From Phycisphaeraceae bacterium (lineage in GTDB: Bacteria > Planctomycetota > Phycisphaerae > Phycisphaerales > Phycisphaeraceae), in contig CBDCBB010000004.1 of assembly GCA_965214155.1 (NCBI GenBank), positions 84,248 through 148,247 on the forward strand: a DNA stretch of 64,000 nt, read 5' to 3'. How positions within the stretch are numbered: the stretch's first letter is position 1; each line of letters begins with the position of its first letter. The notes below the pieces were generated by a model. It was not told where the DNA came from and did no database searches. It saw nothing but the letters and a program-made list of their open reading frames with translations. This document shows positions 24,666 to 40,093 of this stretch, piece after piece. The translations under genes were made by a program, and so were the position numbers.

Positions 24666-26696
24666 TCACCCCCGGACCACGATGGTGTTGTGGATGTGCA
24701 CGCTCGGCACGGTGATGCGGAGGGTGCCCCGGGTCCAGGACCAGTCGATCGGCTCGCGGTCGTAAGCGGAGATGACGGAGCGCGGCTTCGCAGGCAGGGG
24801 GACACGCAGCCGGATCGGTCCAACGCGTGGAATCTCATCGACGGCCGGCACGTTCGGCTGAAGGAGCAGGCCGCTGGCGTTATTGATGAGGTGGACCATG
24901 AGCGGGATATTCTTGCGGCGGCGCATCACCACATCGACACAAGCCGGGCCTTGTACCGCGGCCAGCCGCTTATCCGCCAGTTCGCGGACCACTTCGGCGA
25001 CGAAGGCACGGAGTTCGGGGTAGCGGAGGCCGGTGAAGACCGTGAAAACGTCCCACGGCACGTAAGCCACAGCCCCCTTGCCGACCCTGCGGAGCACGGC
25101 GGCGGGATGCGTGGTAGCCGAGTCCTCATCCAGCAGAACATCGCGGTACAGCGGCGACAGCACCGTCGCGTCGTTCACCGTGGTGAGGCGGACGCGTTCG
25201 AGGTACAGCGGACTCGCGCCGCCGCCCCCGGAGACGGCCAAGTCCTGGGCCTCCGCCACCTTGCCTTCGGCGACACCGAGGAACGCGCCGCCGAAGCGGT
25301 CGAAGGCGTCGACGCCGGTCACGAGCAGCCGGCCGCCGGTTTCGACATAAGCCTTGAGGTCTTCGAGCATGCCGTCGGACATGCGGTGGGCCTCCGGCAC
25401 CACGACGAGCGGGAAGTCGCTCAGCCGCGGGCGCAGCGCCCACTCGTCGAGCACGTCCACGGGCAATTGCGACTCGACGAGCGTGATAACCGCGGCCTGC
25501 ACGGGGCGGAGGTCCACGCCGTGCTTCAGATTCGGCCCGTTGGCCGACGCCCAAAGCGCGTGTTCCGAGTGCAGCACGGCGATCTGCGGGAAGGCGTCGC
25601 TGCCGCGGCAGAGCTTGCGGCGTCGCTTGACGAACCGGCCGACCTCGCCGATACGGTCGGCCCGCCACCCCGACAGCCGCCCGTCGCGGACGCCCGGGAC
25701 CGTCTCATAGACCTGCACCCCCCCGCCCAACGCGACGACCGTTGCCGCCTCCTGCATGAGCATCTGCGCCGGCTTCGCAACGGGGGGATACTCCTTCTTA
25801 TTGAACCGCTGGGCGTAGTAGAAGTTCCAGAGCATCAGGTCCCACGGCTTGCCCCGCGTCGAGATGAACCGGCACTCGCAGCGCCCGCTGTCCAGGCTCC
25901 ACGCCCACACGTTGTCCCCGCTGATCCAGTCGGTCGGCACCCTCGGCTCGCCCGGGTGCCCGAAGGTCTGCAGCCAGTTGGAGCACACCTTTACACCCGG
26001 ACGGTGCCCGTGCACCGCCTCGACGTAGCGGGTCACGTAGGCCTCGAAGCTGTCGAGGGTGAACTTCCACCATGTCGGCCAGTCGGGGTCGGTCGGCTCG
26101 GCGGGGGGCTCTGGCTTGCCGGTCTGCTCGCGGTAGGCGGCGCGGCAGCGGTCGCAGTAGCACGGCTGGGCCGCCCACAGGTCCCCGTCGATCCAGAACC
26201 CGTCGACGTCGTAGCGGTCGACGAGCTCCTTCATCTGCGGGATCATGAACTCCTCGAGGTACCCGCCACGGGGACACATGACCTCGTGGGCAAAGCCGCC
26301 GGCGTTCTGCTTCAGCTCGCCCTGCTGCTCGACGGGCTTAACGGGGGTGACGACCCAGTGCGGGTTCTTCGCCGCGGCCGCGCCGTCCCAGATGCCCGAG
26401 TAGTGGCAGTGCAGGGGCAGCCCCAGCCGCCGGGTCGCCTCGCGCCAGCAGGCCAGCGCGTCGTGCGTCAGCCCGTCAGGCACCGAGGCGTGCTCGACCT
26501 CGCTGAACCAGCTCGTATAGCCGGGGTGGCCTTTGCAGTCGGTCTGGACGAACTCGGCGCCCATGCGCTCGAAGGCGGCGGTCAGCGCGTCCGCGTCGCA
26601 GCGGGTGCCGAGGGTGGTGTCGGCGGCATTCGCGTGCAGGTCGTAGTGCAGGCCAAAGTGTCGGTGGTTGCCGTACCAGTCGCCCTGATTCGCCAT
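24666..26696 (-). CDS. GHL6 / GH151-like (fucosidase-like) hydrolase with beta-galactosidase-trimerisation-like domain
   Basis: HFGLHYDLH, QTDCKGHPG, YDVDGFWIDG, C-terminal LVVVPE...GGRLL. Confidence 0.7.
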   Translation of the reverse strand: MANQGDWYGNHRHFGLHYDLHANAADTTLGTRCDADALTAAFERMGAEFVQTDCKGHPGYTSWFSEVEHASVPDGLTHDALACWREATRRLGLPLHCHYSGIWDGAAAAKNPHWVVTPVKPVEQQGELKQNAGGFAHEVMCPRGGYLEEFMIPQMKELVDRYDVDGFWIDGDLWAAQPCYCDRCRAAYREQTGKPEPPAEPTDPDWPTWWKFTLDSFEAYVTRYVEAVHGHRPGVKVCSNWLQTFGHPGEPRVPTDWISGDNVWAWSLDSGRCECRFISTRGKPWDLMLWNFYYAQRFNKKEYPPVAKPAQMLMQEAATVVALGGGVQVYETVPGVRDGRLSGWRADRIGEVGRFVKRRRKLCRGSDAFPQIAVLHSEHALWASANGPNLKHGVDLRPVQAAVITLVESQLPVDVLDEWALRPRLSDFPLVVVPEAHRMSDGMLEDLKAYVETGGRLLVTGVDAFDRFGGAFLGVAEGKVAEAQDLAVSGGGGASPLYLERVRLTTVNDATVLSPLYRDVLLDEDSATTHPAAVLRRVGKGAVAYVPWDVFTVFTGLRYPELRAFVAEVVRELADKRLAAVQGPACVDVVMRRRKNIPLMVHLINNASGLLLQPNVPAVDEIPRVGPIRLRVPLPAKPRSVISAYDREPIDWSWTRGTLRITVPSVHIHNTIVVRG

Positions 26697-26733: not shown

Positions 26734-27597
26734 CTAGTCGCCGGGGAGCGCCGGGGTGATCTGCAGGTGGGCCCACTGCTCGTACCGGTGCAGCAGCGGG
26801 CGGCGGAAACGGGGGTAGGCGGTCAGCTCAACCAGCGACAGGTAGCGGGAGAAGTTGTACCGGCCCAGGGCGACGCGCCAATCGGTGCCGGCCCCGGCGT
26901 CGCCCTCAGGCGTGTGGGCGTCGGTGTGCTGGAAGAGGCGGGCGAGAGGGACGGCCAGCTCCGCGGTCCAGCCGCGGTCCCGGTCGGTCCAGTCGTTGAG
27001 CGTGCCATCTACCGTTATGGCGGTCCGCAGGCCGGCGGTATCGCTGAGGTTGCTCGCGAGGCCGAACCGTCCGCGGCCGGGGTAGTAAAACGTGGTCCGG
27101 CCACCGGCGGGCGTGGCGTACAGTTCCCAGTACCCGTCGGCATCCGCGGGCTTGAGGAACAGTTCCACGACGTCGCCGCTGAGGTAGTGGTGCTGTTGGT
27201 CGCGCGAGTCTTCCTGGACAACGTCGCTGTCGACGACTTCGAAGCCGCAGTAGAGGTGCTTGGCGTCCTGCAGGAGGTAGGCGACGGCCGACTCAGCGGG
27301 CGGGCGGACGTTGGGGCCGCCGGGGGGCGTCAGCTCGACGCGGAGGGCCTGTTGCCACGCGGGCTCATCGAGGCGGCCGTCGAGCGTGATGCCGCCGTCG
27401 GCGACGCGGGGCAGCGGGCCCAGCCGCGGCGGGGGTACCGCGGCGGGGGGGGCCTCGGTCCGGGCGGCGACAACCGGCGGCGTCGCGGGCGGGCCGGTCG
27501 TGGCGACGCAGCTGAGCAGCGTCAGCGGTGCCGTCATGCACAACCACGCCACCGCACCGCGGCAACGGCGGCGTGTCACGGTCCCCCCGCGCCTCAT
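26734..27597 (-). CDS. CBM9-like/DOMON carbohydrate-binding lipoprotein
   Basis: LLSC lipobox; ITLDGRLDEPAW, HLYCGFEVVD, DVVELFL, GWTAELAVP; ATGA overlap with the symporter stop. Confidence 0.75.
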   Translation of the reverse strand: MRRGGTVTRRRCRGAVAWLCMTAPLTLLSCVATTGPPATPPVVAARTEAPPAAVPPPRLGPLPRVADGGITLDGRLDEPAWQQALRVELTPPGGPNVRPPAESAVAYLLQDAKHLYCGFEVVDSDVVQEDSRDQQHHYLSGDVVELFLKPADADGYWELYATPAGGRTTFYYPGRGRFGLASNLSDTAGLRTAITVDGTLNDWTDRDRGWTAELAVPLARLFQHTDAHTPEGDAGAGTDWRVALGRYNFSRYLSLVELTAYPRFRRPLLHRYEQWAHLQITPALPGD

Positions 27598-29927
27598 GGC
27601 CGACGCTCCGGCCGCGGGTCGACCTCTTCATCAACCCCGTCGGCGTCGAGGCGGTCGGGAAGCGGCGTCGTGCCGGCGTCGACCACCGGCCCGCGGGTGG
27701 GGTCCGGCGCGTCTTCGATCTGCTCGATGATGTCCACCTCGTCGGCGTTGACGTGGCCGAACACGCGGCCGTCGTCGCGGTCGTCGCGTTCGAGGTTGTT
27801 CAGCCGGCGGAACATGCGGAACAGGTCCCGCGTCGTGCCCCATGTGAACCAAACCGTCGTGACGAGGCCGATGCCGATGCCCAGGGTGATCGCTTGATAC
27901 CACCACCACCGCGTCCACCAGTAGTCCGGCCAGCGCCAGATCAGGTTCCAGACGATCTTCAGGCCCCAGAGCGATACCGTGAACAGGGTCCAGAGGAACA
28001 CCGACCAGGCGAGGATGCGGTCGCCGCGGGTGTACTGGTGGTCGATACCCAGGAGCTTGCGCAGCGCCCCGCGGAAGGAGCCGACCGGCCCCGCGGGGAC
28101 CTCGCCGGCTCGGCCGGGGGCGCGGTCGTCGGCGGCGGCGCGGTACTTGCCGCGGTGCAGCAGCCGCTCGAGGTTGTACGGTTCGCGGCAGGTCAGCAGC
28201 GACACCCCGACATACACCGCGATGCAGCCGAGCATCGTGAAGAAGTACATCTCCTGCCCGTTGATGGGGAAGCGGGCGGCGTTCAACTCCCAGGCGATCC
28301 CGGGTACGGCGTTTGAAAACGCGACGAGCCCGTTGCCGATTGAGTCGTGCAGCGCCGGCCGCGCCGCCAGCCACGGGTAGATCGTGTCGGCCCACATCTG
28401 CTGGCCGGTGAAAGCGCTGATTGCCAGGCAGGCACCGACGATCATGGTGGCCCACGCCCCCGCGGCTGTGCCCCGTTTCCAATACAGCCCGCCGAGGATG
28501 CACGCCCCCGCGCCGCCGAGGTAGACCGACCCGGTCAACGCGAAGAACATGAAGATGTAGTTGATCTGCGCGAAGAACAGGCTGAACACGAAGGCGTACA
28601 GCGCCACCCCGATCGCGGCGAGGCGTAGCAAAAGCATCTGGGTCCGAGGCTGCAGCGGGTCCTTGCGCAGCGGCACGATGAGGTCCTGGATCAGGATGCT
28701 CCCCCACGAGTGCAGGTACGTCGTATCCGTGGATATCAGAAAGAAGATCATTACGGCACAGAACGCCCCGGTGATGCCTACGGGCAGGAAGGCGCGGATC
28801 GCCACCGGCACGGTCATCTGCGTCACGATGGCGTTGTAGGTCTGCCGCTCCTTGCCCTCGAGGCCGTCGGCGATGTGGGTAAGTTCCTCAAGGCTCAGCG
28901 TTTTGGGGTCGACGCCGTTGAGCGCCGCGGCGTGGTCGGCGTTGAGGGTCTTGATCGCCAGGTTGCGGTTGACCATCTCCGCCCCGGCGGCGAAGCTGTC
29001 GTGGTGCATGTAGGTGAAGGCGGCGATAGTCACGAAAGAAATCGCCATCATCGAGAAGCCGCTACGCCACGCGCCGAGCACCCCGGCCATCTTCTGCTCG
29101 TGGGCGTTGATCGCCGCGGCGTTGTAGCCCTGGCTGCCCTGCCAGGACAGGCGGTTGTACACGCTGGCGAACACTCCGACCATCACAAAAAACAGGTTGA
29201 AGTCCCGCAGCTCGCCGATGTCGAACGGGTTCATGTAGCTCTTACCCGGCGGGCGGTCGAGCACCGCCGTCTCGATCTCCGCGAACGTGAAGAGATAGAT
29301 CACCGCGAAGAAGATCACCACGTACAGCGGGTAGCTGAGCAGGCCCTGCAACGCGTCGGACACCATGATGGTCAGCTGCCCGCCAAGCGTGACCAGCAAG
29401 ACCGCGATGCTCAGGAAGGCGAACATCACCACGGCGATGGTGGGGATGGACCAGCCGCCCCAGGTAAGGGTCACCGGCAGGTCGCAGTAGTAGATGAAGA
29501 AGCGGCCGCCCACCGCGGGAAAGATGCCGTAGTTGAAGATCCCCGCGAACGCGGAGAGCCCGCCGGTGAAGATGCGGAACCTCTTGCTGTAGCGGAGCTC
29601 GAAGAACTGGGCCATCGTCATGGCCCGCGTCTCGCGGTAGCGGTAGATCGCGAAGCCGGTGAGGGTGATGAAGATGGTGAGCAGGGGCGTGAACCCGCCC
29701 CAGAAGCCGTAGGCGTAGCCGTTGGCGTAATGCGCCTCGAACCAGGCGATGATGGTGATCAGGCCCATGCCCGCCTCGGCACCGGCGACGGTGAGCAGGT
29801 AGCGTCCCGCGACGCGGCCGCCTACGAGGAAGTCGGACACGCTCTTGACGTGCCGCTGGGTGTAGAAGCTCACCGCGGCCACGAGCAGCAGCGGCACCAG
29901 GACGATTAGCCAATCGATCCAGTGCAT
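27594..29927 (-). CDS. Sodium:solute symporter (SSS family)
   Basis: MHWIDW start, DFLVGGR, ETRAMTMAQFFELRYS, about 14 hydrophobic segments. Confidence 0.9.
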   Translation of the reverse strand: MHWIDWLIVLVPLLLVAAVSFYTQRHVKSVSDFLVGGRVAGRYLLTVAGAEAGMGLITIIAWFEAHYANGYAYGFWGGFTPLLTIFITLTGFAIYRYRETRAMTMAQFFELRYSKRFRIFTGGLSAFAGIFNYGIFPAVGGRFFIYYCDLPVTLTWGGWSIPTIAVVMFAFLSIAVLLVTLGGQLTIMVSDALQGLLSYPLYVVIFFAVIYLFTFAEIETAVLDRPPGKSYMNPFDIGELRDFNLFFVMVGVFASVYNRLSWQGSQGYNAAAINAHEQKMAGVLGAWRSGFSMMAISFVTIAAFTYMHHDSFAAGAEMVNRNLAIKTLNADHAAALNGVDPKTLSLEELTHIADGLEGKERQTYNAIVTQMTVPVAIRAFLPVGITGAFCAVMIFFLISTDTTYLHSWGSILIQDLIVPLRKDPLQPRTQMLLLRLAAIGVALYAFVFSLFFAQINYIFMFFALTGSVYLGGAGACILGGLYWKRGTAAGAWATMIVGACLAISAFTGQQMWADTIYPWLAARPALHDSIGNGLVAFSNAVPGIAWELNAARFPINGQEMYFFTMLGCIAVYVGVSLLTCREPYNLERLLHRGKYRAAADDRAPGRAGEVPAGPVGSFRGALRKLLGIDHQYTRGDRILAWSVFLWTLFTVSLWGLKIVWNLIWRWPDYWWTRWWWYQAITLGIGIGLVTTVWFTWGTTRDLFRMFRRLNNLERDDRDDGRVFGHVNADEVDIIEQIEDAPDPTRGPVVDAGTTPLPDRLDADGVDEEVDPRPERRP

Positions 29928-30078: not shown

Positions 30079-31776
30079 TCAGGTTTTTGGGTGCGGCTTT
30101 GCCGACGAGCGGGGGTGCAGAGTGTCGAGATCAGCAAGCACCCGCCGCTCGATCGCGGTGGGCAGGGCGTTCAACCCCGCGTACTCGAGCCAGCCGTTGG
30201 ACACGCCCACGCCGGCTCCGGTGGAGCGGGACAACTCCATCTGCCGGTCCCAAAAGTAGGTCCAGTGCCACGCTCCGGGCAGCCACCGCCGCGTACCCAG
30301 CACCGAAGCGAACCCGCCCGAGGCGCGTCGGTACTGCGGCTGGCCCAGCAGGAACTCGTACGCATGGTCGCCCGCCTCGCCGTCGCACCAGAGCACGAAG
30401 CTCGCGTAGCCGCAATCGGAGGTGAACAGCGCCTTGTCGTCGCCGTAGGAGCGGATCAGCGCCCGCAGCCGTTTGGTGAACGGGATCATGTGCCGCGACA
30501 GCGGGCCGGCGCGGTCGGGGTGGTGGTCGTAGCCCAGCCCGGCGAAGGTCTCGTCCACGACGATGCCGTCGGGGTCGAGCAGCTCCATGATGTGGCGGAC
30601 CTGCCCGAGAAGGTGTTCGCGCCACGCCTCGGCGGCGATGGACATGTGGAAGTTCTGGCCGACGGTCTCGGGCCCGTTCCACGGGAAGGCGATGCGCAGG
30701 CCGTCGGGCCCGACCATGACCGCGTCGCGGAGGTCCGGGTACAGGTCGCTGGCGCTGTCGAACAGGGCCTGGTGGATGTAGATGGTGGCGCGGCTGCCGG
30801 CGGCGCGGGTGCGGCGGATGCGGTCACGCATCAGGTCGAGGGACATCTCGAACGGCACCGAGTTGTCGCCCCGCATCGCGAGCCACTTGTCGCGGCCGGG
30901 GCGGAGGTAGTCGCCGATGCCGGGGTAGTACGCGTGCTGGGTTGCCATCCCCACATGAAAATCGGCGAACCGTTCGGCATCGCGATCGAAGCCCCGGCCC
31001 CGCGGCCCGCCGGGCGTCTCGGCGGAAAGAAAGTCGTAGTAGTGCACCTTCGCCTCGCTCGGCCACGCCGCGGCGGGACCGGCCGGGGGCGCGGCGTGAC
31101 GGTGGAACGCCGCCCAGCCGGCCCGCCCGTCGTCGTCGCTCACGTGCAGCCACACCCGCACCTCGCGCCGCTCGCCCGGCACCAGCGCCAGCCGGGTCCG
31201 CATCGTCCACGCGGGCAGCGGGTCCGTGATCCGCCCCTGATAGGCAATCCGCCACGGCAGTTCCACGTCCCCGAACAGGGTCAGCCGCGGCTCCAGGTCC
31301 CGCTGAGACCACTGCACCAGGGGGACCAGCAGCGGCCGCGTCGTCGTCCGCGTCGACGGGTCGCTCGCGGCCGGCTCGAGGTAGAACGCCTCAAACGCCC
31401 CAAGCACGCCGACCTCCGCCCGCGGGTCCGGGTCAGCCACCGGCCCGAGGAACGACAGCGCCGGGTGATGCGTCGTCGCATACACCGCGATCGGAAACTC
31501 CGCGACGGTGCGGTTAAACAGCGGCGACGGCATCACCGCCGTCGACACCGCGACCGTCGCCGTCACGCCCACCGGCCCGGGGTTGTCCAGGGTCAGCGTC
31601 AGGCACGCCACGTCCGCATCGCCCGGCGGCACGGTCAGGTCTTCCTCGACCCGCACCGCCACCGGATTGACCCCGCCCACGAGCACCTCCCCCCGGCCGA
31701 CGAACAGCGGCTCACCGCCGACGCTCGCCGCGGTCGGCCGGCCCCGCTCGTCTACCGCCCACTCGATGCGCTCCAT
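30079..31776 (-). CDS. Uncharacterised glycoside-hydrolase-like TIM-barrel protein
   Basis: ATG 31776 with GGAAGG; N-terminal beta domain, then HYYDF, IYIHQ, DGIVVDETF, SDCG, DGEAGDH. Confidence 0.65.
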   Translation of the reverse strand: MERIEWAVDERGRPTAASVGGEPLFVGRGEVLVGGVNPVAVRVEEDLTVPPGDADVACLTLTLDNPGPVGVTATVAVSTAVMPSPLFNRTVAEFPIAVYATTHHPALSFLGPVADPDPRAEVGVLGAFEAFYLEPAASDPSTRTTTRPLLVPLVQWSQRDLEPRLTLFGDVELPWRIAYQGRITDPLPAWTMRTRLALVPGERREVRVWLHVSDDDGRAGWAAFHRHAAPPAGPAAAWPSEAKVHYYDFLSAETPGGPRGRGFDRDAERFADFHVGMATQHAYYPGIGDYLRPGRDKWLAMRGDNSVPFEMSLDLMRDRIRRTRAAGSRATIYIHQALFDSASDLYPDLRDAVMVGPDGLRIAFPWNGPETVGQNFHMSIAAEAWREHLLGQVRHIMELLDPDGIVVDETFAGLGYDHHPDRAGPLSRHMIPFTKRLRALIRSYGDDKALFTSDCGYASFVLWCDGEAGDHAYEFLLGQPQYRRASGGFASVLGTRRWLPGAWHWTYFWDRQMELSRSTGAGVGVSNGWLEYAGLNALPTAIERRVLADLDTLHPRSSAKPHPKT

Positions 31777-31791
31777 CTGCACCTTCCCGGG

Positions 31792-31819
31792 TTGCGAAAA
31801 AATAAGTACGACTTATCAT
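31792..31819 (+). promoter_or_regulatory. Sigma70 promoter of FadR gene with FadR-type operator
   Basis: TTGCGA 31792-31797, 16 nt, TATCAT 31814-31819; palindrome ATAAGT-acg-ACTTAT at 31802-31816; ATG 7 nt after -10. Confidence 0.7.
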
Positions 31820-31826
31820 CCGCATC

Positions 31827-32561
31827 ATGGCCTTCGCCGCCGCCTCACGCAAGTCCAGCCACACCCGCGTCACCGAGACGCTCGGCCGACGCATCGTCCG
31901 GGGCTCCTACCCCAGCGGCGACCTCCTGCCCCACGAGGCGCGGCTGACCGTCGGCCTGTCCGTCAGCCGCACCATCCTCCGCGAGTCGCTCCGCACCCTC
32001 TCGGCCAAGGGGATGATCGAGGCCCGACAACGCGTCGGCACCCGCGTCACCGACCGCCGGCGGTGGAACCTCCTCGACGAGGACGTCATCGGCTGGCACG
32101 TCCTCGAACGCCGCCACCACCCCGACCTGTTCCGCCAGGTGGTCGAGGCTCGGATGGTGGTCGAGCCCGTCGCCGCGGCCATGGTCGCCCACCGCGCCGA
32201 CGCCCGGGACGTCGCGGCCATCGAGGAGGCGCTGCACCGCATGACAACGGCGGGCGCGGACCTGACCGCGTACCTCGACGCGGACGTGGTGTTCCACCGA
32301 TCCATTTACGACGCCGCGGGCAACGAACTCTTGGGGCAGATGGGCAACGTCCTGATCGCGGCGCTGCACCTGAGCCATGCGGTGACGTCGCGGGTCCCCG
32401 ACGCGATCGGCCGGTCGCTGCCGCTGCACGTCAAGCTGGTCGAGGCGATCCGTCGCCGCTCGCCCGCCGCCGCCCGCCGCGCCACCGAACGGCTGATCCG
32501 CTGCGTGATTGAGGACCTCGAGGCGACGCTCGGCTGCACGCTGGAAGTGGGGCCGCTGTGA
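31827..32561 (+). CDS. FadR/GntR family regulator (FCD domain)
   Basis: LPHEARL...VSRTILRESLRTL...RQRVGTRV; EARMVVEP; DVVFHRSI. Confidence 0.92.
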   Translation: MAFAAASRKSSHTRVTETLGRRIVRGSYPSGDLLPHEARLTVGLSVSRTILRESLRTLSAKGMIEARQRVGTRVTDRRRWNLLDEDVIGWHVLERRHHPDLFRQVVEARMVVEPVAAAMVAHRADARDVAAIEEALHRMTTAGADLTAYLDADVVFHRSIYDAAGNELLGQMGNVLIAALHLSHAVTSRVPDAIGRSLPLHVKLVEAIRRRSPAAARRATERLIRCVIEDLEATLGCTLEVGPL

Positions 32562-33511
32562 CATTCGCCCGCGGCACCGAGGAGCTCCGCGACGGGCTGT
32601 GGCGGCTGAACGAGCCGCTGGGCAGCCGGTTGCTGTCGTACTACGCCTTGCGGCAGGACGGCGGGTGGCTGCTGTGGGACGCGGGCCTGCCCGGGTCGAT
32701 CACCGGGCGGCTTGACACGGGCACCTGGGGCGGGGCCGTCACCGGCCTGATCGTCTCGCACGCCGACGCCGACCACCTCGGCGACGCCGCCCGGCTCCGC
32801 GAGCGCTTCCCGGAGCTGTCCATCCGCTGCCACCCAGCCGACCGCGCGTGGATCGAGGACCACGACCTGCTCACCGCCGAACGCTACGACCACGCCCGGA
32901 GCCGCTACGGCTACGCGTACCCCGACGAATTGCTCACCGCCCTGCGCGGCGTGTGCGGCGACGACTTCCGGGTCGATGCCACGCTCGACGACGGCGACAC
33001 GGTCGACGCGGCGGGGGTCGCCTGGCGCGTGATGCACGCCCCGGGTCACAGCCCCGGGCACCTGTGCCTGTGGTGCGAGGCGACGGGCGTGCTGCTGCTT
33101 AGCGACGCGGCGCTCGGCCGCGGCGCGCCCGACGCGGCGGGCCGCCCGTCGATGCCGCCGACGCACCAGCACGTCGCGCCGTACCTGGACACCCTCGACC
33201 GGCTCGCGGCGCTCCCCGTCACGACGGCGCTGCCGGCCCACTGGGAGCCGTTGGACGGCGAGACGTTCCAACGGTTCATCCGCGAAAGCCGCGAGGTGGT
33301 CTACCGCGACCTGGCGACCGTGGAGGAGGCGGTGCGTCGCGGCGAGGCGACGACCTTCTCCGGGTTGATGTCGGTGCTCAACGGCCGCTGGTCGACCTGG
33401 CCCGAGTCGGAGGACGGCCACTACTTCTACGCGCTGGCGGGCTACCTCGAGCACCTGGAAGCGGCGGGTGCGATCCGTATCGATGCCGAGGGAAAGGCGG
33501 AGCCGGCATGA
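32558..33511 (+). CDS. Metallo-beta-lactamase-fold hydrolase
   Basis: SHADADH, HAPGHSPGH, LSDA, PAHW; GTGA-coupled to FadR. Confidence 0.85.
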   Translation: MTFARGTEELRDGLWRLNEPLGSRLLSYYALRQDGGWLLWDAGLPGSITGRLDTGTWGGAVTGLIVSHADADHLGDAARLRERFPELSIRCHPADRAWIEDHDLLTAERYDHARSRYGYAYPDELLTALRGVCGDDFRVDATLDDGDTVDAAGVAWRVMHAPGHSPGHLCLWCEATGVLLLSDAALGRGAPDAAGRPSMPPTHQHVAPYLDTLDRLAALPVTTALPAHWEPLDGETFQRFIRESREVVYRDLATVEEAVRRGEATTFSGLMSVLNGRWSTWPESEDGHYFYALAGYLEHLEAAGAIRIDAEGKAEPA

Positions 33512-34302
33512 GCGAGGTCATCGGCAAGGGGCTGCTCGACGGGGTGCGGGCCGTCGTCACCGGCGGCGGGCAGGGCCTGGGCCACAGCATCGCCGCGCGC
33601 TTCGCCGCGTGCGGGGCGACGGTAGCGATCCTCGACCGCGACGGGCCGCTGGCCGGGCAGGCCGCCGCCGCGCTGCCGGGCGGGGGGCACCTCGGCCTGG
33701 CCGCGGACGTGACCGTCGCCGCCGAGCGCGAGGAGGCGGTAGGCGAAGCGATCGACCGCCTCGGCGGGCTTGACGTGCTGGTCAACAACGCCGGCATCCA
33801 GCTCCACGCGCCCGCCGAGGACATCACGGCGGAGCAGTGGGAGAAGGTCCTGAGCGTCAATCTCACGGCGGCGCTGATGATGAGTCAACTCGCCGCGCGG
33901 CACCTCATCGCCCGGGGCAGCGGCGGGTCCATCGTCAACATCGGCAGCCTCGGCTCGCTCCTGGCGATGCCCCGACGGACGATCTACGGCACGTCCAAGA
34001 CCGCCGTGCTCGGGCTCACCCGCCACCTCGCCGTGGACTGGGCCCGCCACGCCATCCGCGTCAACGCCGTCTGCCCCGGCTACCACCGCACCCCGCTCTA
34101 CGAGGACTACGTCCGACGCGGCGCCATCGACGAAGACCGCATCCTCAACCGCATCCCGATGCGACGCCTGGGCGCACCCGACGACGTCGCCGACGCGGCG
34201 GTCTTCCTCGCCTCGCCCCTGTCGTCGTACCTCACCGGCCAGGCCCTCACCGTCGACGGGGGCTACTCCGTCTATGGCGCGGCGGAGGACACCCCTTCGT
34301 GA
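33508..34302 (+). CDS. SDR oxidoreductase
   Basis: TGGGQGLG, NNAG, YGTSK, VNAVCPG. Confidence 0.92.
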   Translation: MSEVIGKGLLDGVRAVVTGGGQGLGHSIAARFAACGATVAILDRDGPLAGQAAAALPGGGHLGLAADVTVAAEREEAVGEAIDRLGGLDVLVNNAGIQLHAPAEDITAEQWEKVLSVNLTAALMMSQLAARHLIARGSGGSIVNIGSLGSLLAMPRRTIYGTSKTAVLGLTRHLAVDWARHAIRVNAVCPGYHRTPLYEDYVRRGAIDEDRILNRIPMRRLGAPDDVADAAVFLASPLSSYLTGQALTVDGGYSVYGAAEDTPS

Positions 34303-35408
34303 GCGGCACGATCCGCAAGCTCGACGCCTTCGAGGTTACGGTGCCCCTGCCCCGGCCCCTCGCCCTCGGCGGGATGTCCATCGCCGACCGGCGCTATTGC
34401 ATCGTCCGCATCGAGGACGGCGACGGCCGCGTCGGCGTCGCCTACGGCCTGACCCGCAACGCGCCGGTCGCCGCCACCGTCGCCCGCACCGTCGCGCCGC
34501 TGTGGCAGGGCGCTGCGCTCGACGGCCACCACACCCTGTACGAGAAGACGGTCCGCGCCAACGTCTGCCTCGGGACCGGCGGCATCTTCTGGCGGGCGCT
34601 CAGCCTGTGCGACTGCGCGCTGTACGACCTGCTCGCGCAGCGGGCGGGGCAGCCGCTCGGGGTATTCCTCGGCGGAATGCGGCGGCGCGTGAAACATCTG
34701 CTGGTGGGGGGCTACCCGTCGCCGGACGAGACGGCCGAGGCGCTGGCGGAACAGATGCACGCGCTGGCGTCGCAGCGACCCGACGGCGTCAAGGTCGCGA
34801 GTTGCGGCGACTTCGCCCGGGATGTGCAACGCCTCGAAACCTGCCGCGGGGCGCTCGGCGGGGACACGCCGCTGATGCTCGACCTGTTCTGGCAGGTCAA
34901 CGACCCCCGGGCTTTCGCGAAGCAGGCCGCCGGGCTGACCGGGCTCGGGATGGGCTGGATCGAGGACCCCGTCGGGTTCGACGACTACGACGGCCTCAAG
35001 ACGCTCCGCCGCACGCTCGACGTGCCGATCGCGATGGGCGACGAGCAGAGCGGCCGGCGCACGTTCGAGCAGCTGACCCGGCCGGGGCGGGTCGACGTCG
35101 TGCGGCTGGACGCGACGGTGTGCGGCGGCGTCCGCGCCTTCATCGCCATCGCCGCGATGGCGCAGGAGCGGGGACTGAAAGTCGCCTGTCACATGGCGGA
35201 CCAGTTGCACCTGCAACTGGCGCACGCCGCGCCGAACGTGGCGTGGGTCGAGCGGATGCCCGAGGCGCTGGGCCTGGACTCGGCGCACCTGCTGTGGGCC
35301 GACGCCGGCGACCGTGGCGGGCCGACCCCCGCGACGCCTCGGCCGGGCGTCGGCATCGTGTGGGATGATGAGGCGTTGGAGCGGTACCGGAGTGCGGCGT
35401 CATGGTGA
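34299..35408 (+). CDS. Mandelate racemase/muconate lactonizing enzyme (enolase superfamily) protein
   Basis: GTG 34299; CDCALYDL, metal ligands LDL/WIEDP/GDEQ, DATVCGG, CH. Confidence 0.88.
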   Translation: MSGTIRKLDAFEVTVPLPRPLALGGMSIADRRYCIVRIEDGDGRVGVAYGLTRNAPVAATVARTVAPLWQGAALDGHHTLYEKTVRANVCLGTGGIFWRALSLCDCALYDLLAQRAGQPLGVFLGGMRRRVKHLLVGGYPSPDETAEALAEQMHALASQRPDGVKVASCGDFARDVQRLETCRGALGGDTPLMLDLFWQVNDPRAFAKQAAGLTGLGMGWIEDPVGFDDYDGLKTLRRTLDVPIAMGDEQSGRRTFEQLTRPGRVDVVRLDATVCGGVRAFIAIAAMAQERGLKVACHMADQLHLQLAHAAPNVAWVERMPEALGLDSAHLLWADAGDRGGPTPATPRPGVGIVWDDEALERYRSAASW

Positions 35409-36187
35409 GCATCGACCTGAACGGGCAGAACATCCTGTTGACCGGTGCGCTCGGCGCGATCGCGGAGTTCGTCGTGCGGCGGCTGACCGAGGCCGGGGCG
35501 ACGGTGTGGTGCACCGACGTCGCGGCGCCGGAGGCGGCGCGGCAGACGCTCGACGGCTGGGGCATCCCCGAGGCGCAGTCGCCCTACGCCAAGATGGACG
35601 TGACCGACGCGGCGGCGGTCGACCGCGTCGTGGCGGGGCTCATCGACGCGCACGGCCCGGTGGACGTCTGCCTCGGCCACGCGGGGGGCTGCGGGATGCA
35701 CCCCTTCGCCACGACCGAACCGGCCGAGTACGAACGCATCTTCCGTTTCAACTACTTCGGCCAGGTGAACCTCACCCGCGCCGTCACCCGGCACTGGCGC
35801 GACGGCGACCGGGCCGGGCACATGATCTATACCTCGTCGCTGGTCGGGTCGATCCCCTGGCCGGACCTCGCGGCGTACAACTCGGCCAAGGCGGCGCTCG
35901 AGATGTTCGCTAAGACGATGGCCCTCGAACACGCGGACCGCGGCATCCGTTTCAACGTCGTCGCCCCCGGCCACGTCGCCGCGGGCTCGGCCCTCAAGGT
36001 TTACCAAGAGGACCCGGCGTACCGACGTATGACCGACCGTGTCATCCCGCTCAAGCGGCTGGTCCGTCCCGAGGGCATCGCCGACGCGCTGCTCTTCCTC
36101 TGCTCGCCGCTGGCGGGCGAGGTCAACGGGCAGGTGATCCACGTCGATCTAGGAACCAGCATCCCCAAATTAGGAGGTGAAGCGTGA
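35402..36187 (+). CDS. SDR oxidoreductase (atypical Gly-rich motif)
   Basis: LTGALGAIA, YNSAK, FNVVAPG. Confidence 0.88.
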   Translation: MVSIDLNGQNILLTGALGAIAEFVVRRLTEAGATVWCTDVAAPEAARQTLDGWGIPEAQSPYAKMDVTDAAAVDRVVAGLIDAHGPVDVCLGHAGGCGMHPFATTEPAEYERIFRFNYFGQVNLTRAVTRHWRDGDRAGHMIYTSSLVGSIPWPDLAAYNSAKAALEMFAKTMALEHADRGIRFNVVAPGHVAAGSALKVYQEDPAYRRMTDRVIPLKRLVRPEGIADALLFLCSPLAGEVNGQVIHVDLGTSIPKLGGEA

Positions 36188-36495
36188 TCTACGAGTGGCG
36201 GGTTTATACGTGCCGGCCCGGGACCGCGGGCGAGGTGCTGCGGCTGTGGGAGGAGCGCGGCCGGGCGATGCTCGAGCCGTACTTCGAGATGGCCGGGCAG
36301 TGGACCGGCGAGTCGGGCGTGGGCAACCGCATCTACACGCTGTGGGTCTTCCGCGACCTCAACCACCGGCAGGAGGCGCGGCGGGCGCTGCTGAAGCACC
36401 CCGGCTTCGCGGAGTACCTCGCCGAATGCCGGGCGTACTACGTCGAGCAGGAGGCGGTGTTCTTGTCGCCCACGCCGCTGAGCCCGCTGCAGTGA
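36184..36495 (+). CDS. NIPSNAP family protein
   Basis: MIYEWRVY...NRIYTLWVFRDLNHRQEAR...LSPTPLSPLQ. Confidence 0.88.
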   Translation: MIYEWRVYTCRPGTAGEVLRLWEERGRAMLEPYFEMAGQWTGESGVGNRIYTLWVFRDLNHRQEARRALLKHPGFAEYLAECRAYYVEQEAVFLSPTPLSPLQ

Positions 36496-36503
36496 GGGTG
36501 CCG

Positions 36504-37649
36504 ATGCGACTGAGAGGCTTGACCTGGCAGAACCCGCGGGGCTACGACCCGCTCGTCGCGACGGCGGGGGCGTGGGCGGAGCGTGAGCCAGACGTGGAGG
36601 TCGCGTGGGAGGCGCTGCCGTGGATCGACTTTGAGCACCGGTTGATCGACTCGTTCGAAGGTCGGGCCGAGCCGTACGACCTGGTGATGCTGGACCACCC
36701 GTGGGTCGGGACGCTGTCGTCGCGGGGCTGGCTGCGGGCGTGGGACGAGCTGGCGGAGCCGGACTATTTGGCCGAGCTGCGGGGGCGGGTGGTCGCGCCG
36801 AGTTACGAGAGCTACGTGTGGGGCGGCCGGCTGTGGGCGCTGCCGGTGGACGCGGCGTGCCACGCGGGGCTGATCCGGCGCGACCTGGTGGACGCGGCGG
36901 ACCTGCCGCGAGAGTGGCGCGACATCGCGGCCTGGGCGGCCGACTACCGCTCGCCGACGGTGCGGTACCCGCTGGTGCTGAGCGTGAGTTCGGTGCTGGG
37001 CCACTGCCTGTTCCTGGCGTTGATGCAGGCGCGGGGGACGCCGCCTTACACCGAGGCGGAGCGTCCGCGGTGCGACCGCGACGCGGCCGCCGACGTGCTG
37101 GAGGCCATCGTGGACCTCTTGCGGTTCGTGCCGCCGGAATCGGCGCGGTGGGGGCCGTGGGACATCTACGAGCACCTGACGGCCCACGACGACGTCGCGT
37201 GGAGCCCGCAGATCTTCGCGTACGTCAACTACTTCGACGCCGCTTCGCCGCGGCGGCTCAAGCTCGTCGACTGCCCGTCGTGGAGCGGGCACGAGGCGAC
37301 GCCGATCCTCGGCGGGGTGGGGCTGGCGGTGAGCGCCCGGTCGCAGCACCCCGACGCCGCCGCGGCGTACGCCCGCTTCACGATGTCCGAGCCGGCGCAG
37401 CGCGACCTCTTCCCCCACCACCGCGGCCAGCCCGCGGCCCGGTCGGTCTGGACCGACCCCCACCTCAACCGCCCGGCCGACGGCTTCTATACCGACCTGC
37501 TCCCGCAGATGCGGCGGAGCTTCGTCCGGCCCCGCTACCCCGGCTTCCACGACCTCGAACTCCGCAACGCCGACGTGCTGCAACGCCTGTGGGACGGCGA
37601 CGCCACGATCCCGCAGACCGTCGCCGCGCTGCACGATCCGCTGGGTTGA
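36504..37649 (+). CDS. ABC-type sugar solute-binding (family 1) fold protein lacking a signal peptide
   Basis: MRLRGLTWQNPRGYDP, YDLVMLDHPWVG, SYVWGGRLWALPVDAA, ILGGVGLAVS. Confidence 0.8.
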   Translation: MRLRGLTWQNPRGYDPLVATAGAWAEREPDVEVAWEALPWIDFEHRLIDSFEGRAEPYDLVMLDHPWVGTLSSRGWLRAWDELAEPDYLAELRGRVVAPSYESYVWGGRLWALPVDAACHAGLIRRDLVDAADLPREWRDIAAWAADYRSPTVRYPLVLSVSSVLGHCLFLALMQARGTPPYTEAERPRCDRDAAADVLEAIVDLLRFVPPESARWGPWDIYEHLTAHDDVAWSPQIFAYVNYFDAASPRRLKLVDCPSWSGHEATPILGGVGLAVSARSQHPDAAAAYARFTMSEPAQRDLFPHHRGQPAARSVWTDPHLNRPADGFYTDLLPQMRRSFVRPRYPGFHDLELRNADVLQRLWDGDATIPQTVAALHDPLG

Positions 37650-37700
37650 ACCCGTTCCCGTCCCCGCCTTGGATAAGACGCCCCGGCCCCACCGACACCC

Positions 37701-38483
37701 GTGACTACTCCTCAAACCAATCCGCCCCCCGGCTCAATCCACTCGCTCGCCGGGCACGTCGCCCTGATCACCGGCGGCGGGTCGGGCATCGGGCTGGGGA
37801 TCGCCCGGGCCTATGTCGATGCCGGAGCCAAAGTGGTCCTGATTGGCCGTCGTGAGGGCCCTCTGCAGGAAGCGTGCGGCTTGCTGGGTGATGCGGCGAC
37901 GTGGCGGGCGTTGGACCTCCAGAACCTCGCGGGCATCCCGGCGTTGGTGGACGACGTGAAGCAGGCGGGCACGCCGCCGACGCTGCTGGTCCACGCCGCG
38001 GGCATCCATCGCAAGGCGTCCTTGAGCAACACCTCCGACGCCGACCTGGCGGAGATGTGGCAGGTCCACGTCGCCGCGGGTTTTGCGCTGGCCCGGGCCA
38101 TGCACGGCACGATGTGCGGAGCGAACGGCTCGATCCTCTGGATCGCGTCGATGGCGGCACTGATCGGCCTGCCGCACGTCTCGGCTTACTCCGCGGCGAA
38201 GAGCGCCGTCACCGGCCTGGTGCGGGGCCTTGCCGACGAGCTCGCCGCGTCGGGCATCCGCGTCAACGCCATCGCCCCGGGCTGGATCGACACGCCCCTG
38301 CTCCGTGCCGCGCTCGACCGCGACCCGGCCCGCCGCGACCGTATCCTGCAACGCACCCCGCTCGGCCGCTTCGGTAGCGTCGAAGAAGTCGGCCACGTCG
38401 CCGCCTTCCTCGCCTCCCCCGCGGCCAGCTTCATCACCGGCACCGTCCTCCCCGTCGACGGCGGAGCCGCGGTCGGCTTCTAG
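37701..38483 (+). CDS. SDR oxidoreductase (gluconate 5-dehydrogenase-like)
   Basis: TGGGSGIG, YSAAK, VNAIAPGW. Confidence 0.9.
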   Translation: MTTPQTNPPPGSIHSLAGHVALITGGGSGIGLGIARAYVDAGAKVVLIGRREGPLQEACGLLGDAATWRALDLQNLAGIPALVDDVKQAGTPPTLLVHAAGIHRKASLSNTSDADLAEMWQVHVAAGFALARAMHGTMCGANGSILWIASMAALIGLPHVSAYSAAKSAVTGLVRGLADELAASGIRVNAIAPGWIDTPLLRAALDRDPARRDRILQRTPLGRFGSVEEVGHVAAFLASPAASFITGTVLPVDGGAAVGF

Positions 38484-39941
38484 CTCGACGAACTTCCTCA
38501 TCGATGTCGCAGTCGATCGCCGTCATCTGCGGCTTACGCAGCACATCCCGAATATCGTTCGGCACAGCCACCGCCCCGTCGCCAAGGCGGATCGCCAGGC
38601 AATCTTGTGTCTGGGTAAGCCGCCACGGCTTCAACTCCCGTACCTCGACGTCATCGGGATGTTGCCGATTGTGCTGCTTGAGCCGCTCCGCCGCATGCGG
38701 CTCGCAGCCCAGCACCAGGCGGATGCCCCAACGATCAAGCGGCTCCGCAAGCAGGCCGTTCGTGGCATCGACGTCATTGAGTCGGTCAATGCACAGCGTG
38801 AGCCACAAATCGCCGCGGGCGGGGCCGAGCACCTCCGCATTTCCGGTCTAGCGGATCGTGCCATAGCCTGCTTGCAGCTATCTTAAGGTCCTTGTGCACA
38901 TCGCCACTCGACTCGATGAACACGACCGCGGGAGTGCGGGCGGCGTCGGCCGCTGCCTAGATCCCCCAGGACTTGCTTATGCCGCTCTCGCCGGTCATCG
39001 CCGTCAGCGGGGCTCGAATCGTTGACGCCTCACTTCGCCGCATGTCCCATCCGGGGCGGTAGCCAACCCTATCGAACCGAACCCTTGAACTGTCGCCGCA
39101 TCGCCGCTCCAGCGCCAGGCGGTTGGCGGCCGGAACAGCTTGACTGGAACCGTGCTCCGAGAACAGCTTCTCCGGGGTGATACATGTCTCATTCTCGCCG
39201 CTGCGGTCGATGAGCCAGCCGGTCGTCGCCCGACCCAACTGCGGCACCTTCTCTCTTGCCTCCACGACGGGCAGCGGGGCACGTTCCACCGCCGCCCGCG
39301 CCCGTTTCGGCGACCAGCCGCCGTCGAACTTGAACCGAGCGAGCAGTTGCCACGACGTGTGGACAGCAAGGTCCCACGGGTCCCGACGGTCGGGCCGTCC
39401 CGCCGCCGGGGCCGGCCCGCGGAACTCGTTCACAATGCGATGAAAAACGTCACGCTCGGCCCTACCGCTTTACCCGAGATCGCCGCCGCCCCCCCGAAGG
39501 CCGGCGGCTTGGTTCAATCAAGTGTCTTGAAAGTCCGACCAGTTCCGCCCGTATCGGCTGCCCGCTCCCGAAGGGTCCTAAAGAAGTCTTGCATTGATGC
39601 CATTCCCTCACCCGACCCTCGGAAACGAACTCGTAGATGATCTGCTCATCTGCCAGATCAACCGCCCGTTAGCGGTCGGGCTAATCATCTTCAACCAACT
39701 CTTCGGGTGGCCACGTCTCACCGCACCCTCGGGTCTTCAGCTACACCACACGCCGGCCTGCCGGCATCTCGGATGTCGAATCGCCACCGTGCGGCTCCTG
39801 AACGATCGGCAACTTTGCAGGCGACGTGTCCCCATCATCAACCGTCGAATGTACCCGGGCCTCCGCCGCCTGAACCAGTATGTAGAGAGCCTGAGACCAG
39901 ACATGGCGGTCGCTAGCGGATCCACCGACCGTCGGGGTCAC
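38480..39941 (-). pseudogene. Decayed nuclease-NTPase fusion (QxK-type PD-(D/E)xK domain + P-loop NTPase; Avs/STAND-like)
   Basis: Manual translation: EPHGGD...RRVV*LKT (TAG 39741-43 where Gln is expected), stops at 39681 and 39669, frameshift near 39470-39520, degenerate Walker A GESGISKS, TAG 38957, frameshift near 38845, Walker-B-like LTLCIDRLND; lower GC. Confidence 0.6.
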
Positions 39942-40093
39942 GCGACGGTGCCCAACGTGCTTTTGTCGAACCGGTGCGTCGGGTGCCTTGGGGTTCGATG
40001 CACTACCCGGAAGTTGGAGCCCGCGTGGGTCGTGTCGGGTGGTGGTCGCTTGCCTAACGTCGGATAACTCCAACCCCTCAGGACCCCCTCAAG

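Follow-up and report, generated by a model that had tools for sequence, protein, structure and literature searches.

An eight-gene operon of a Phycisphaeraceae bacterium, led by a FadR-subfamily regulator, carries a cross-phylum gene module for a probable oxidative sugar pathway

Which pathway, and which substrate, is served by an operon that combines a FadR-type regulator, a metallo-β-lactamase (MBL)-fold hydrolase, three short-chain dehydrogenases/reductases (SDRs), an enolase-superfamily enzyme, a NIPSNAP protein and a solute-binding protein (SBP)-like protein? The operon lies in a 64,000-nucleotide (nt) stretch of a Phycisphaeraceae bacterium (GCA_965214155.1, contig CBDCBB010000004.1, positions 84,248 to 148,247 of the forward strand), referred to below as the window, whose own numbering is used throughout. 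The RecA protein of the organism shares 80-83% identity with that of Phycisphaeraceae MAGs (metagenome-assembled genomes), in line with its place in the Phycisphaerae. Taken together, the data make it probable that these genes specify a non-phosphorylative oxidative pathway, not described before and spread by horizontal transfer, which would act on a neutral aldose freed in the cell from imported marine-glycan oligosaccharides. The operon itself spans 31827-38483 on the + strand and consists of eight co-directional genes with assigned Pfam families (lengths in amino acids, aa), preceded by a promoter:

31792-31819, + strand: sigma-70-like promoter TTGCGA-16-TATCAT, predicted from sequence
31827-32561, + strand: GntR/FCD regulator, 244 aa (Pfam GntR 6.7e-15, FCD 7.6e-25)
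32558-33511, + strand: MBL-fold metallo-hydrolase, 317 aa (Pfam Lactamase_B 4.6e-24)
33508-34302, + strand: SDR1 (Pfam SDR)
34299-35408, + strand: enolase-superfamily enzyme, 369 aa (MR_MLE_C, PF13378, 8.3e-38; MR_MLE_N, PF02746, 1.7e-6)
35402-36187, + strand: SDR2 (Pfam SDR)
36184-36495, + strand: NIPSNAP protein, 103 aa (Pfam NIPSNAP, PF07978, 2e-19, residues 3-101)
36504-37649, + strand: SBP-like protein, 381 aa (Pfam SBP_bac_1/8)
37701-38483, + strand: SDR3 (Pfam SDR)

Translational coupling joins the eight genes into a single unit headed by the FadR-subfamily GntR regulator, with a candidate operator that is palindromic and unique. Five of the seven gene junctions overlap by 4-7 nt (GTGA, ATGA, GTGA, ATGGTGA and GTGA), the remaining two being gaps of 8 nt (NIPSNAP/SBP-like) and 51 nt (SBP-like/SDR3), and a third-position GC of 0.88-0.96 in a window of about 70% G+C backs all eight gene calls. 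These results agree with a preliminary description of the DNA, made from its letters alone, which had reported a FadR-led operon of eight genes with these families and mostly overlapping junctions. The span of 31776-38483 given there is correct at its end and needs revision at its start, since 31776 falls just inside the divergent gene and the promoter/operator region begins at about 31792. An ATG-started open reading frame (ORF) at 34274-35368 was rejected as the enolase gene, as it lies in the wrong frame and has no Pfam match; the true gene starts with GTG at 34299.

The regulator joins an N-terminal GntR winged helix-turn-helix (PF00392) to a C-terminal all-helical FCD domain (PF07729), the architecture of the FadR subfamily, and scores far below the equivalog of the fatty-acid regulator FadR (30 bits vs a cut-off of 189). 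A perfect inverted repeat, ATAAGT-ACG-ACTTAT (31803-31817), overlaps the -10 element of the promoter within the 44-bp gap that separates the divergent start codons, and occurs only once in the 4.56-Mb genome. A GT-N3-AC core is usual in FadR-subfamily operators, and the palindrome, which has this core, is a candidate operator for the regulator; its candidate target DNA reads ATAAGTACGACTTAT. Orthologs of the regulator lead the same operon in two other loci, L013 (68% identity) and L021 (57%), where the operator is conserved only approximately. No intrinsic terminator was detected 3' of SDR3. The 1.6 kb that follow the operon (38484-40093) have a lower G+C of 0.66 and contain no ORF with coding-like codon bias.

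How far does this gene set extend beyond one genome? Twelve loci of the enolase family were sampled, their contexts inspected, tblastn run and their proteins clustered into orthogroups. SDR1 and the NIPSNAP protein are present in all 12, the SBP-like protein in 11 (at least 42% identity) and the MBL protein in 10, and the sub-orders MBL-SDR1-enolase and NIPSNAP-SBP are retained across these loci from several phyla. Together with the enolase-family enzyme, SDR1 and the MBL, NIPSNAP and SBP-fold proteins make up a module conserved across phyla; the latter three proteins and the enolase-family enzyme each form their own discrete, uncharacterized orthogroup. Carriers include Planctomycetota (the window, a Pirellulales metagenome-assembled genome (MAG) and probably L013), one gammaproteobacterial MAG, Bacteroidota (Wocania arenilitoris, Agaribacillus aureus, and MAGs of Cyclobacteriaceae, Chitinophagaceae and Flavobacteriaceae), Verrucomicrobiota (Cerasicoccus frondis and one MAG) and Chloroflexota. 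A second context, type B (Anaerolineae, Hyphomicrobiales), combines the enolase-family gene with three SDR genes and has a PRK09237-type amidohydrolase in place of the MBL, NIPSNAP and SBP-like proteins.

The distribution of the module is at odds with that of its hosts. The profile-based scan of a 185,579-species collection returned 18 matches, while a scan of species genomes for exact peptides found no close relative of the enolase. No enolase ortholog is present in 40 relatives of the host (best 32% identity) or in 400 other Planctomycetota, and on these grounds vertical inheritance was rejected. In the enolase tree the window sequence clusters with L013 and the gammaproteobacterium (support 100/99), the Chitinophagaceae stand apart from the other Bacteroidota, and type B forms one supported clade nested among the type-A sequences. 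This disagreement with taxonomy, coupled with the presence of the module in only 1 of 401 sampled Planctomycetota, indicates that the module moved horizontally, and the operon represents a real gene module spread in this way among marine glycan degraders from six phyla. Full-text literature searches found no description of it, with subscription papers only partly covered, so that an earlier description is possible. One copy, in L020, is decayed: the MBL and SBP-like genes are split over several frames (7533-8172 and 11202-12203), and SDR1, the enolase-family gene, SDR2 and NIPSNAP appear intact.

The module always lies in sugar-uptake and glycosidase contexts. In Bacteroidota it sits inside SusC/D polysaccharide utilization loci (PULs) with a glycoside hydrolase (GH) of family GH3 (Xyl3A-like), β-helix proteins, esterases and the aldose epimerase and sugar porter described next; in Verrucomicrobiota its neighbours are a transporter of the solute:sodium symporter (SSS) family, LacI, GH172 and GH116; and loci of the Planctomycetota type have sulfatases, GH151-like and GH95 enzymes and a clan GH-D-like protein, with GH95 and sulfatases flanking the module in L020 and L013. 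A GalM-type aldose 1-epimerase occurs in five loci (244 bits vs a cut-off of 240), an XylE-like sugar porter of the major facilitator superfamily (MFS) stands beside SDR1 (SP subfamily, 343-363 bits vs a cut-off of 238), and type-B loci contain a CUT2-type monosaccharide ABC system. The GalM, sugar-porter, CUT2, SusC/D, glycosidase and sulfatase neighbours together indicate that a free, neutral reducing monosaccharide enters the pathway. The preliminary description had held that a scattered gene order, or homologous operons mapping to a known non-sugar pathway, would count against its reading; order proved to be conserved in the 12 loci, and the context was carbohydrate in each.

The same observations bear on whether the substrate is a carbohydrate at all. 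Non-sugar enzymes are known in each of the enolase-superfamily, MBL, SDR and NIPSNAP families, and the genes could in principle serve the racemization or epimerization of an amino-acid derivative by the enolase, the detoxification of lactones or esters by the MBL protein, or a small biosynthetic cluster. Such a role is very improbable given the carbohydrate context in every phylum, the regulator types, which vary among loci and are those of sugar operons (GntR/FCD, AraC, LacI), and the catalytic residue set and closest relatives of the enolase-family enzyme, described below. In five of the Bacteroidota SusC/D PULs a 740-750-aa protein with no Pfam match adjoins the module (L039:3639-5861, L040:15448-17700 and three more). 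This protein may be a new glycoside hydrolase or lyase by which the substrate is freed; BLAST gave no link between it and the 567-aa or 752-aa proteins of the window, and relaxed Pfam searches returned sub-threshold hints only.

The enolase-family enzyme has the capping and barrel domains, the three carboxylate metal ligands, the Lys after β2 and the His-Asp dyad that define the mandelate racemase (MR) subgroup. Residues K165, D195, E222, E249, D271, H298 and E318 show no variation among 29 family members, their assignment to strands resting on motif homology (WIEDP, GDEQ, RLDAT) and not on a solved structure, and the KxK motif lacks its first Lys (G-V/I-K). In a collection of 5.8 billion proteins some 75 homologs share 43-66% identity, after which identity falls to 35% or less. 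The enzyme scores below every curated NCBIfam equivalog cut-off: the best is L-talarate/galactarate dehydratase (TalrD/GalrD; 145 bits vs 500), followed by arabinonate (109 vs 650), L-rhamnonate (94 vs 393), galactonate (70 vs 311) and gluconate/galactonate dehydratases (66 vs 750) and ManD (61 vs 550). TalrD/GalrD is also the closest solved relative (PDB 2pp0, 1.6e-30, about 30% identity), ahead of other acid-sugar dehydratases and cycloisomerases. It shares with the module enzyme the Lys at the end of β2, the three carboxylate ligands and the His-Asp dyad, yet differs from it in the sub-threshold score, in the missing first Lys of KxK and in the identity gap that marks the module enzymes as a separate family. 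The L-fuconate dehydratase (FucD) structures 2hxt, 1yey and 2hne match residues ~164-300 only, at about 1e-13. From these comparisons the enzyme appears to be a new family in the mandelate racemase subgroup, and we propose that it acts as an aldonate dehydratase.

Of the three SDRs, SDR1 is the sole universal one and is always located directly upstream of the enolase gene. It is a classical NAD-type SDR (motifs TGGGQGLG, Asp43, NNAG and YGTSK) that exceeds the NCBIfam cut-off for the glucose 1-dehydrogenase subfamily (241 bits vs 215), and it is proposed to be the aldose 1-dehydrogenase. SDR2 is a divergent NAD-type SDR (TGALGAIA, YNSAK) without the NNAG motif, found in five loci; in six others a non-orthologous SDR2' is found, the two being mutually exclusive, and in Bacteroidota and Verrucomicrobiota it is this different SDR that occupies the SDR2 position. 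A role as 2-keto-3-deoxy-acid dehydrogenase is proposed for SDR2. SDR3, a classical SDR with Arg-Arg after strand β2 (an NADPH-type signature), co-occurs with an RraA-like class II aldolase whose genes are present in 7 of the 12 loci and which is adjacent to SDR3 in L013 and L030; SDR3 is proposed to be the reductase of an aldolase branch. In the window's genome the RraA ortholog is unlinked (contig C10:3739833-3740531, 51-59% identity). The preliminary description had suggested that the three SDRs, with NIPSNAP, may define one route; of the three only SDR1 is universal, SDR2 being replaced in two phyla and SDR3 following the aldolase.

The MBL protein, 39-63% identical among its orthologs in the 10 loci and the product of a module-specific orthogroup, has in all eight orthologs compared H-A-D-A-D-H as motif 2 in place of the usual H-x-H-x-D-H, with the remaining metal motifs intact (PGHSxGH, GDA, HW). 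Lactonases of the MBL fold include the AiiA-type acyl-homoserine lactonases and UlaG. The module protein resembles these in fold, in the intact motifs and in its place in the pathway logic, and differs from them in motif 2 and in showing no detectable sequence relation to characterized lactonases; among PDB sequences only uncharacterized structural-genomics relatives were matched. It is the sole core gene missing from the otherwise complete Chitinophagaceae locus L027, and this dispensability of one core gene, often seen for lactonases, makes a function as sugar-lactone hydrolase plausible.

The solved relatives of the enolase-family enzyme also include cycloisomerases of 3,6-anhydro-D-galactonate and 3,6-anhydro-L-galactonate (5olc, 6e-25; 5xd7, 1e-19), and one of its orthologs is automatically named galactarolactone cycloisomerase. 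The substrate might thus be an anhydro-sugar, a uronate or its lactone or another modified sugar, the enolase acting as a cycloisomerase or lactone-opening enzyme, an NAD-/NADPH-type SDR pair inverting one centre of a keto-deoxy acid to yield 2-keto-3-deoxygluconate (KDG) for the Entner-Doudoroff route, and the MBL, NIPSNAP and SBP-fold proteins handling the modification. This scheme would give tasks to three unexplained proteins and suits the cofactor types of SDR2 (NAD) and SDR3 (NADPH), and a KDG-kinase-like PfkB and a 2-keto-3-deoxy-6-phosphogluconate (KDPG) aldolase flank the enolase gene in L014 and L016. The module is also present in Agaribacillus aureus, which, to judge by its genus name, presumably degrades agar. 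Known catabolism of 3,6-anhydro-galactose (DauA-D of Zobellia; the agarolytic AHG pathway) is likewise linked to marine-glycan PULs and likewise leads from an enolase-superfamily enzyme through SDRs toward KDG. It differs from the module, which has no DauA/AHGD-type aldehyde dehydrogenase; the relation to DauB/ACI is distant, and the GalM-type epimerases and sugar-porter MFS proteins indicate an ordinary reducing sugar. Moreover, PfkB and the KDPG aldolase are absent from most loci, and SDR3 follows the RraA-like aldolase and not SDR2. We regard a modified-sugar substrate as improbable.

The NIPSNAP and SBP-like proteins, like the MBL protein, belong to families with no known role in oxidative sugar pathways. 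The NIPSNAP protein, to which PF07978 aligns across the whole length, is the most conserved member (61-85% identity across phyla; 38 of its 103 columns do not vary). Its orthogroup (at least 60% identity) is limited to module-bearing genomes, the next NIPSNAPs sharing 43% or less, and its Chloroflexota orthologs accompany SDR1 and the enolase even where the MBL protein and an SBP-like ortholog were not seen. Comparison with PDB sequences returned structural-genomics relatives only. NIPSNAP belongs to the same Pfam clan as the RhaM mutarotase.

The SBP-like protein begins directly at 'MRLRGLTWQNPRG', and none of 11 orthologs has a leader (signal peptide or lipobox), as the preliminary description had noted for the window copy; these N-termini place it in the cytoplasm. 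Neither the operon of the window nor the Bacteroidota PULs contain genes for an ABC permease or ATPase. Sequence comparison of the protein with PDB gave generic or structural-genomics matches only. An AlphaFold2 model (predicted local distance difference test (pLDDT) 96.9) adopts a type II periplasmic binding protein fold and superposes in Foldseek on sugar SBPs (SmoF, MalE3 and TMBP) with template modeling (TM) scores of 0.78-0.86; the top 50 matches contain only transport SBPs and maltose-binding protein (MBP) fusions, and no enzyme. The invariant residues (W8, R12, W35, D59, H65, Y104, D116, Y243, Q299, Q309, W316 and R342) supply Trp, Tyr, Arg, Asp, His and Gln side chains that fit a sugar or sugar-acid cleft. 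The protein therefore resembles the ABC sugar-binding proteins MalE, TMBP and SmoF in predicted fold and in its aromatic/polar cleft pattern, and is unlike them in lacking a leader and a permease/ATPase partner, in occurring in Bacteroidota PULs and in its fixed position beside NIPSNAP. With orthologs 42-66% identical across phyla it is a core member as conserved as the enolase, and was given too little weight in the preliminary description. More distant SBP-like paralogs (30-35% identity) adjoin family-III CoA-transferases in Thalassospira, Isoptericola and the window's own genome, which makes a second conserved pairing. The pair in this genome (L124, C10:1130045-1132323; 34% identity) lies beside an SDR and a heparinase II/III-like protein. 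Of the two pairs found elsewhere (L121 and L122), that of Thalassospira sp. HJ is inside a rhaM/MR_MLE/UxaA/SDR/FAH cluster and that of Isoptericola is accompanied by an acyl-CoA ligase and an enoyl-CoA hydratase.

What might supply the operon with its sugar? Upstream of it, four genes are transcribed in the opposite direction:

30079-31782, - strand: clan GH-D-like protein, 567 aa, no Pfam or PDB sequence match
27594-29927, - strand: SSS-family transporter, 777 aa, from family search
26734-27597, - strand: CBM9-like lipoprotein, from family search
24666-26696, - strand: GH151-like glycosidase, 676 aa, whose sole PDB sequence match is the GH151 α-L-fucosidase 6TVK (2.2e-10)

A divergent hydrolase of unrecognized type next to an SSS operon had been reported here before, and both are indeed present, the former with a predicted clan GH-D (GH36/GH31-like) fold and co-conserved with the operon. 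The 567-aa family is rare (84 matches among 1.84 billion representative proteins). Its AlphaFold model (pLDDT 88.6) contains an N-terminal β-sandwich and a (β/α)8 barrel like those of GH36, GH31 and GH27, and Foldseek aligns it to GH36/GH31 enzymes, GH36 α-galactos(amin)idases among them, with probability 1.0 and E-values of 1e-20 to 1e-15; membership in any sequence family was not found. In L013 and L020 its orthologs lie beside the module, and on its modeled fold the protein is a candidate glycosidase for release of the operon substrate. The GH151-like protein, a distant relative of that family, has the Pfam domain Alpha_L_fucos and a GH42 trimerization domain, and is 54% identical to a neighbour-conserved ortholog in L013. 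Further away, a GH29 α-L-fucosidase gene above the Pfam cut-off is located at 12427-13476 (- strand), one of four GH29 genes in the genome. A 752-aa protein (20229-22487, + strand) gives sub-threshold hints of GH127, GH88 and GlcNAc-2-epimerase only; it is 60% identical to the product of a module-adjacent gene in L013 and has two 38% paralogs in the genome (contigs C6 and C10). None of the 567-aa, 676-aa and 752-aa proteins carries a signal peptide, so the cleavage of oligosaccharides is probably cytoplasmic.

A reaction sequence for the proposed oxidative pathway can be drawn up in an order taken from the established L-fucose, L-rhamnose and pentose precedents. The SSS transporter (elsewhere the MFS porter or SusCD) would import the sugar or oligosaccharide, and the clan GH-D-like and GH151-like proteins would free the monomer in the cytoplasm. 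SDR1 would then oxidize C1 of the aldose with NAD to give a lactone, the MBL hydrolase would open the lactone, and the enolase-family enzyme would dehydrate the resulting aldonate to a 2-keto-3-deoxy acid, which SDR2 or its non-orthologous substitute would oxidize in turn. Cleavage would finally yield pyruvate and a small acid or aldehyde. This last step may fall to an unlinked fumarylacetoacetate hydrolase (FAH)-family protein resembling LRA6 or, in an optional branch, to the RraA-like class II aldolase, with the NADPH-type SDR3 reducing the aldehyde. For NIPSNAP, whose closest ties are to SDR1 and the enolase, isomerization of an anomer or lactone is the leading guess; for the MBP-fold protein it is that the sugar or sugar acid is bound or passed on, with catalysis as the alternative. 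As to the sugar, the four GH29 genes, the lack of bacterial microcompartment (BMC) shell genes in the genome and the sub-threshold score of the one FucI-like gene there make the L-fucose / L-galactose / D-arabinose configurational series the leading, though weak, guess. The lack of fucosidases in the Bacteroidota and Verrucomicrobiota loci, together with the rarity of the module, favours a rarer sugar.

The logic of this sequence, SDR 1-dehydrogenase to lactonase to enolase-superfamily dehydratase to SDR 4-dehydrogenase of the keto-deoxy acid to FAH-family hydrolase/aldolase, is that of the L-fucose pathway of the Xanthomonas/Burkholderia type (MetaCyc L-fucose degradation II) and of LRA1-6, and fucosidase and sulfatase neighbours are a further likeness in the Planctomycetota loci. 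Could the operon simply be the organism's own L-fucose or L-rhamnose pathway, run by diverged or non-orthologous enzymes, with NIPSNAP as the mutarotase and the SBP-fold protein as a passenger? The GH151-like and GH29 genes of the window, the GH95 and sulfatase genes of L020 and L013, the want of BMC genes or a clear FucI, and the clan shared by NIPSNAP and RhaM are all in keeping with this. So is the LRA6-like FAH gene (C10:1725253, 389 bits vs a cut-off of 500), which adjoins paralogs of the operon's neighbours: a 567-aa paralog (46% identity, C10:1726478-1728046), an SSS transporter and a CBM9-like lipoprotein, in an arrangement that mirrors the divergent operon of the window. No operator is shared between the two loci. 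Against it, FucD is matched only weakly and partially, behind TalrD/GalrD, and L-rhamnonate dehydratase scores well short of its cut-off. The lactonase candidate is of the MBL fold and not of the amidohydrolase type of fuconolactonase, and the operon contains no FAH gene and adds a conserved NIPSNAP and a cytoplasmic MBP-fold protein. A GalM epimerase coexists with NIPSNAP in module loci, the SBP-fold protein is conserved across phyla to a degree unlike that of a passenger, and the module is rare (18 matches in the 185,579-species collection, 1 of 401 Planctomycetota), whereas the use of fucose is common. A plain fucose or rhamnose pathway in this genome seems to us unlikely. Functionally, the module appears to resemble the oxidative 6-deoxyhexose and pentose pathways; by orthology it is a member of none. 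Since none of its enzymes has an ortholog in the established L-fucose, L-rhamnose, pentose or galactonate routes, the preliminary assignment to an oxidative sugar route outside the described ones stands.

Several observations weigh against the proposed oxidative scheme. Which glycosidase families accompany the module varies from phylum to phylum (GH151-like, GH29 and GH95 vs GH172 and GH116 vs GH3, β-helix proteins and the 740-aa protein), and no single substrate is implied. None of the SDRs can be assigned to a specific known sugar dehydrogenase, NCBIfam and PDB giving generic matches only, and no cleavage enzyme is encoded within the window. The atypical H-x-D-x-D-H motif of the MBL protein and its lack of a characterized relative leave room for chemistry other than that of a lactonase. 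NIPSNAP and the SBP-fold protein, conserved throughout, have no counterpart in the classical oxidative scheme, suggesting that the real pathway may differ from its template. A bolder version would turn these last features into its basis: the module may be a route for a rare marine-glycan monosaccharide in which NIPSNAP and the MBP-fold protein serve as components of a new kind, catalytic or obligatory for substrate handling, and the H-x-D-x-D-H MBL protein represents a new class of lactonase or other enzyme. We put this forward tentatively, as a possibility somewhat short of even. If true, it would provide the first enzymatic role of a bacterial NIPSNAP and the first for an SBP_bac_1-fold protein recruited to cytoplasmic sugar metabolism.

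Marine Planctomycetota, Verrucomicrobiota and Bacteroidota control the turnover of sulfated algal glycans, and the catabolism of the monomers is known only in part. Genome-based assignment of roles relies on only two textbook fucose pathways (e.g. PMC13668718). The module is a compact, PUL-embedded unit found across phyla, with all five core families uncharacterized. Once solved, it would link a set of 'hypothetical' PULs to a substrate and a pathway and a new enolase-superfamily family to a function, and would test the recruitment of NIPSNAP and a signal-less binding-protein homolog as cytoplasmic pathway components. The existence of cultured carriers (Wocania arenilitoris, Agaribacillus aureus and Cerasicoccus frondis) makes the module directly testable.

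Finally, the genome of the window contains at least two further clusters that combine an SDR with an enolase-superfamily enzyme. The first (L125, C10:3736131-3740531) includes a creatininase-family protein and the RraA ortholog. The second (L127, C10:2706106-2709066) pairs an Lra1-like SDR (214 bits, cut-off 400) with a galactonate-dehydratase-like enzyme (186 bits, cut-off 311).

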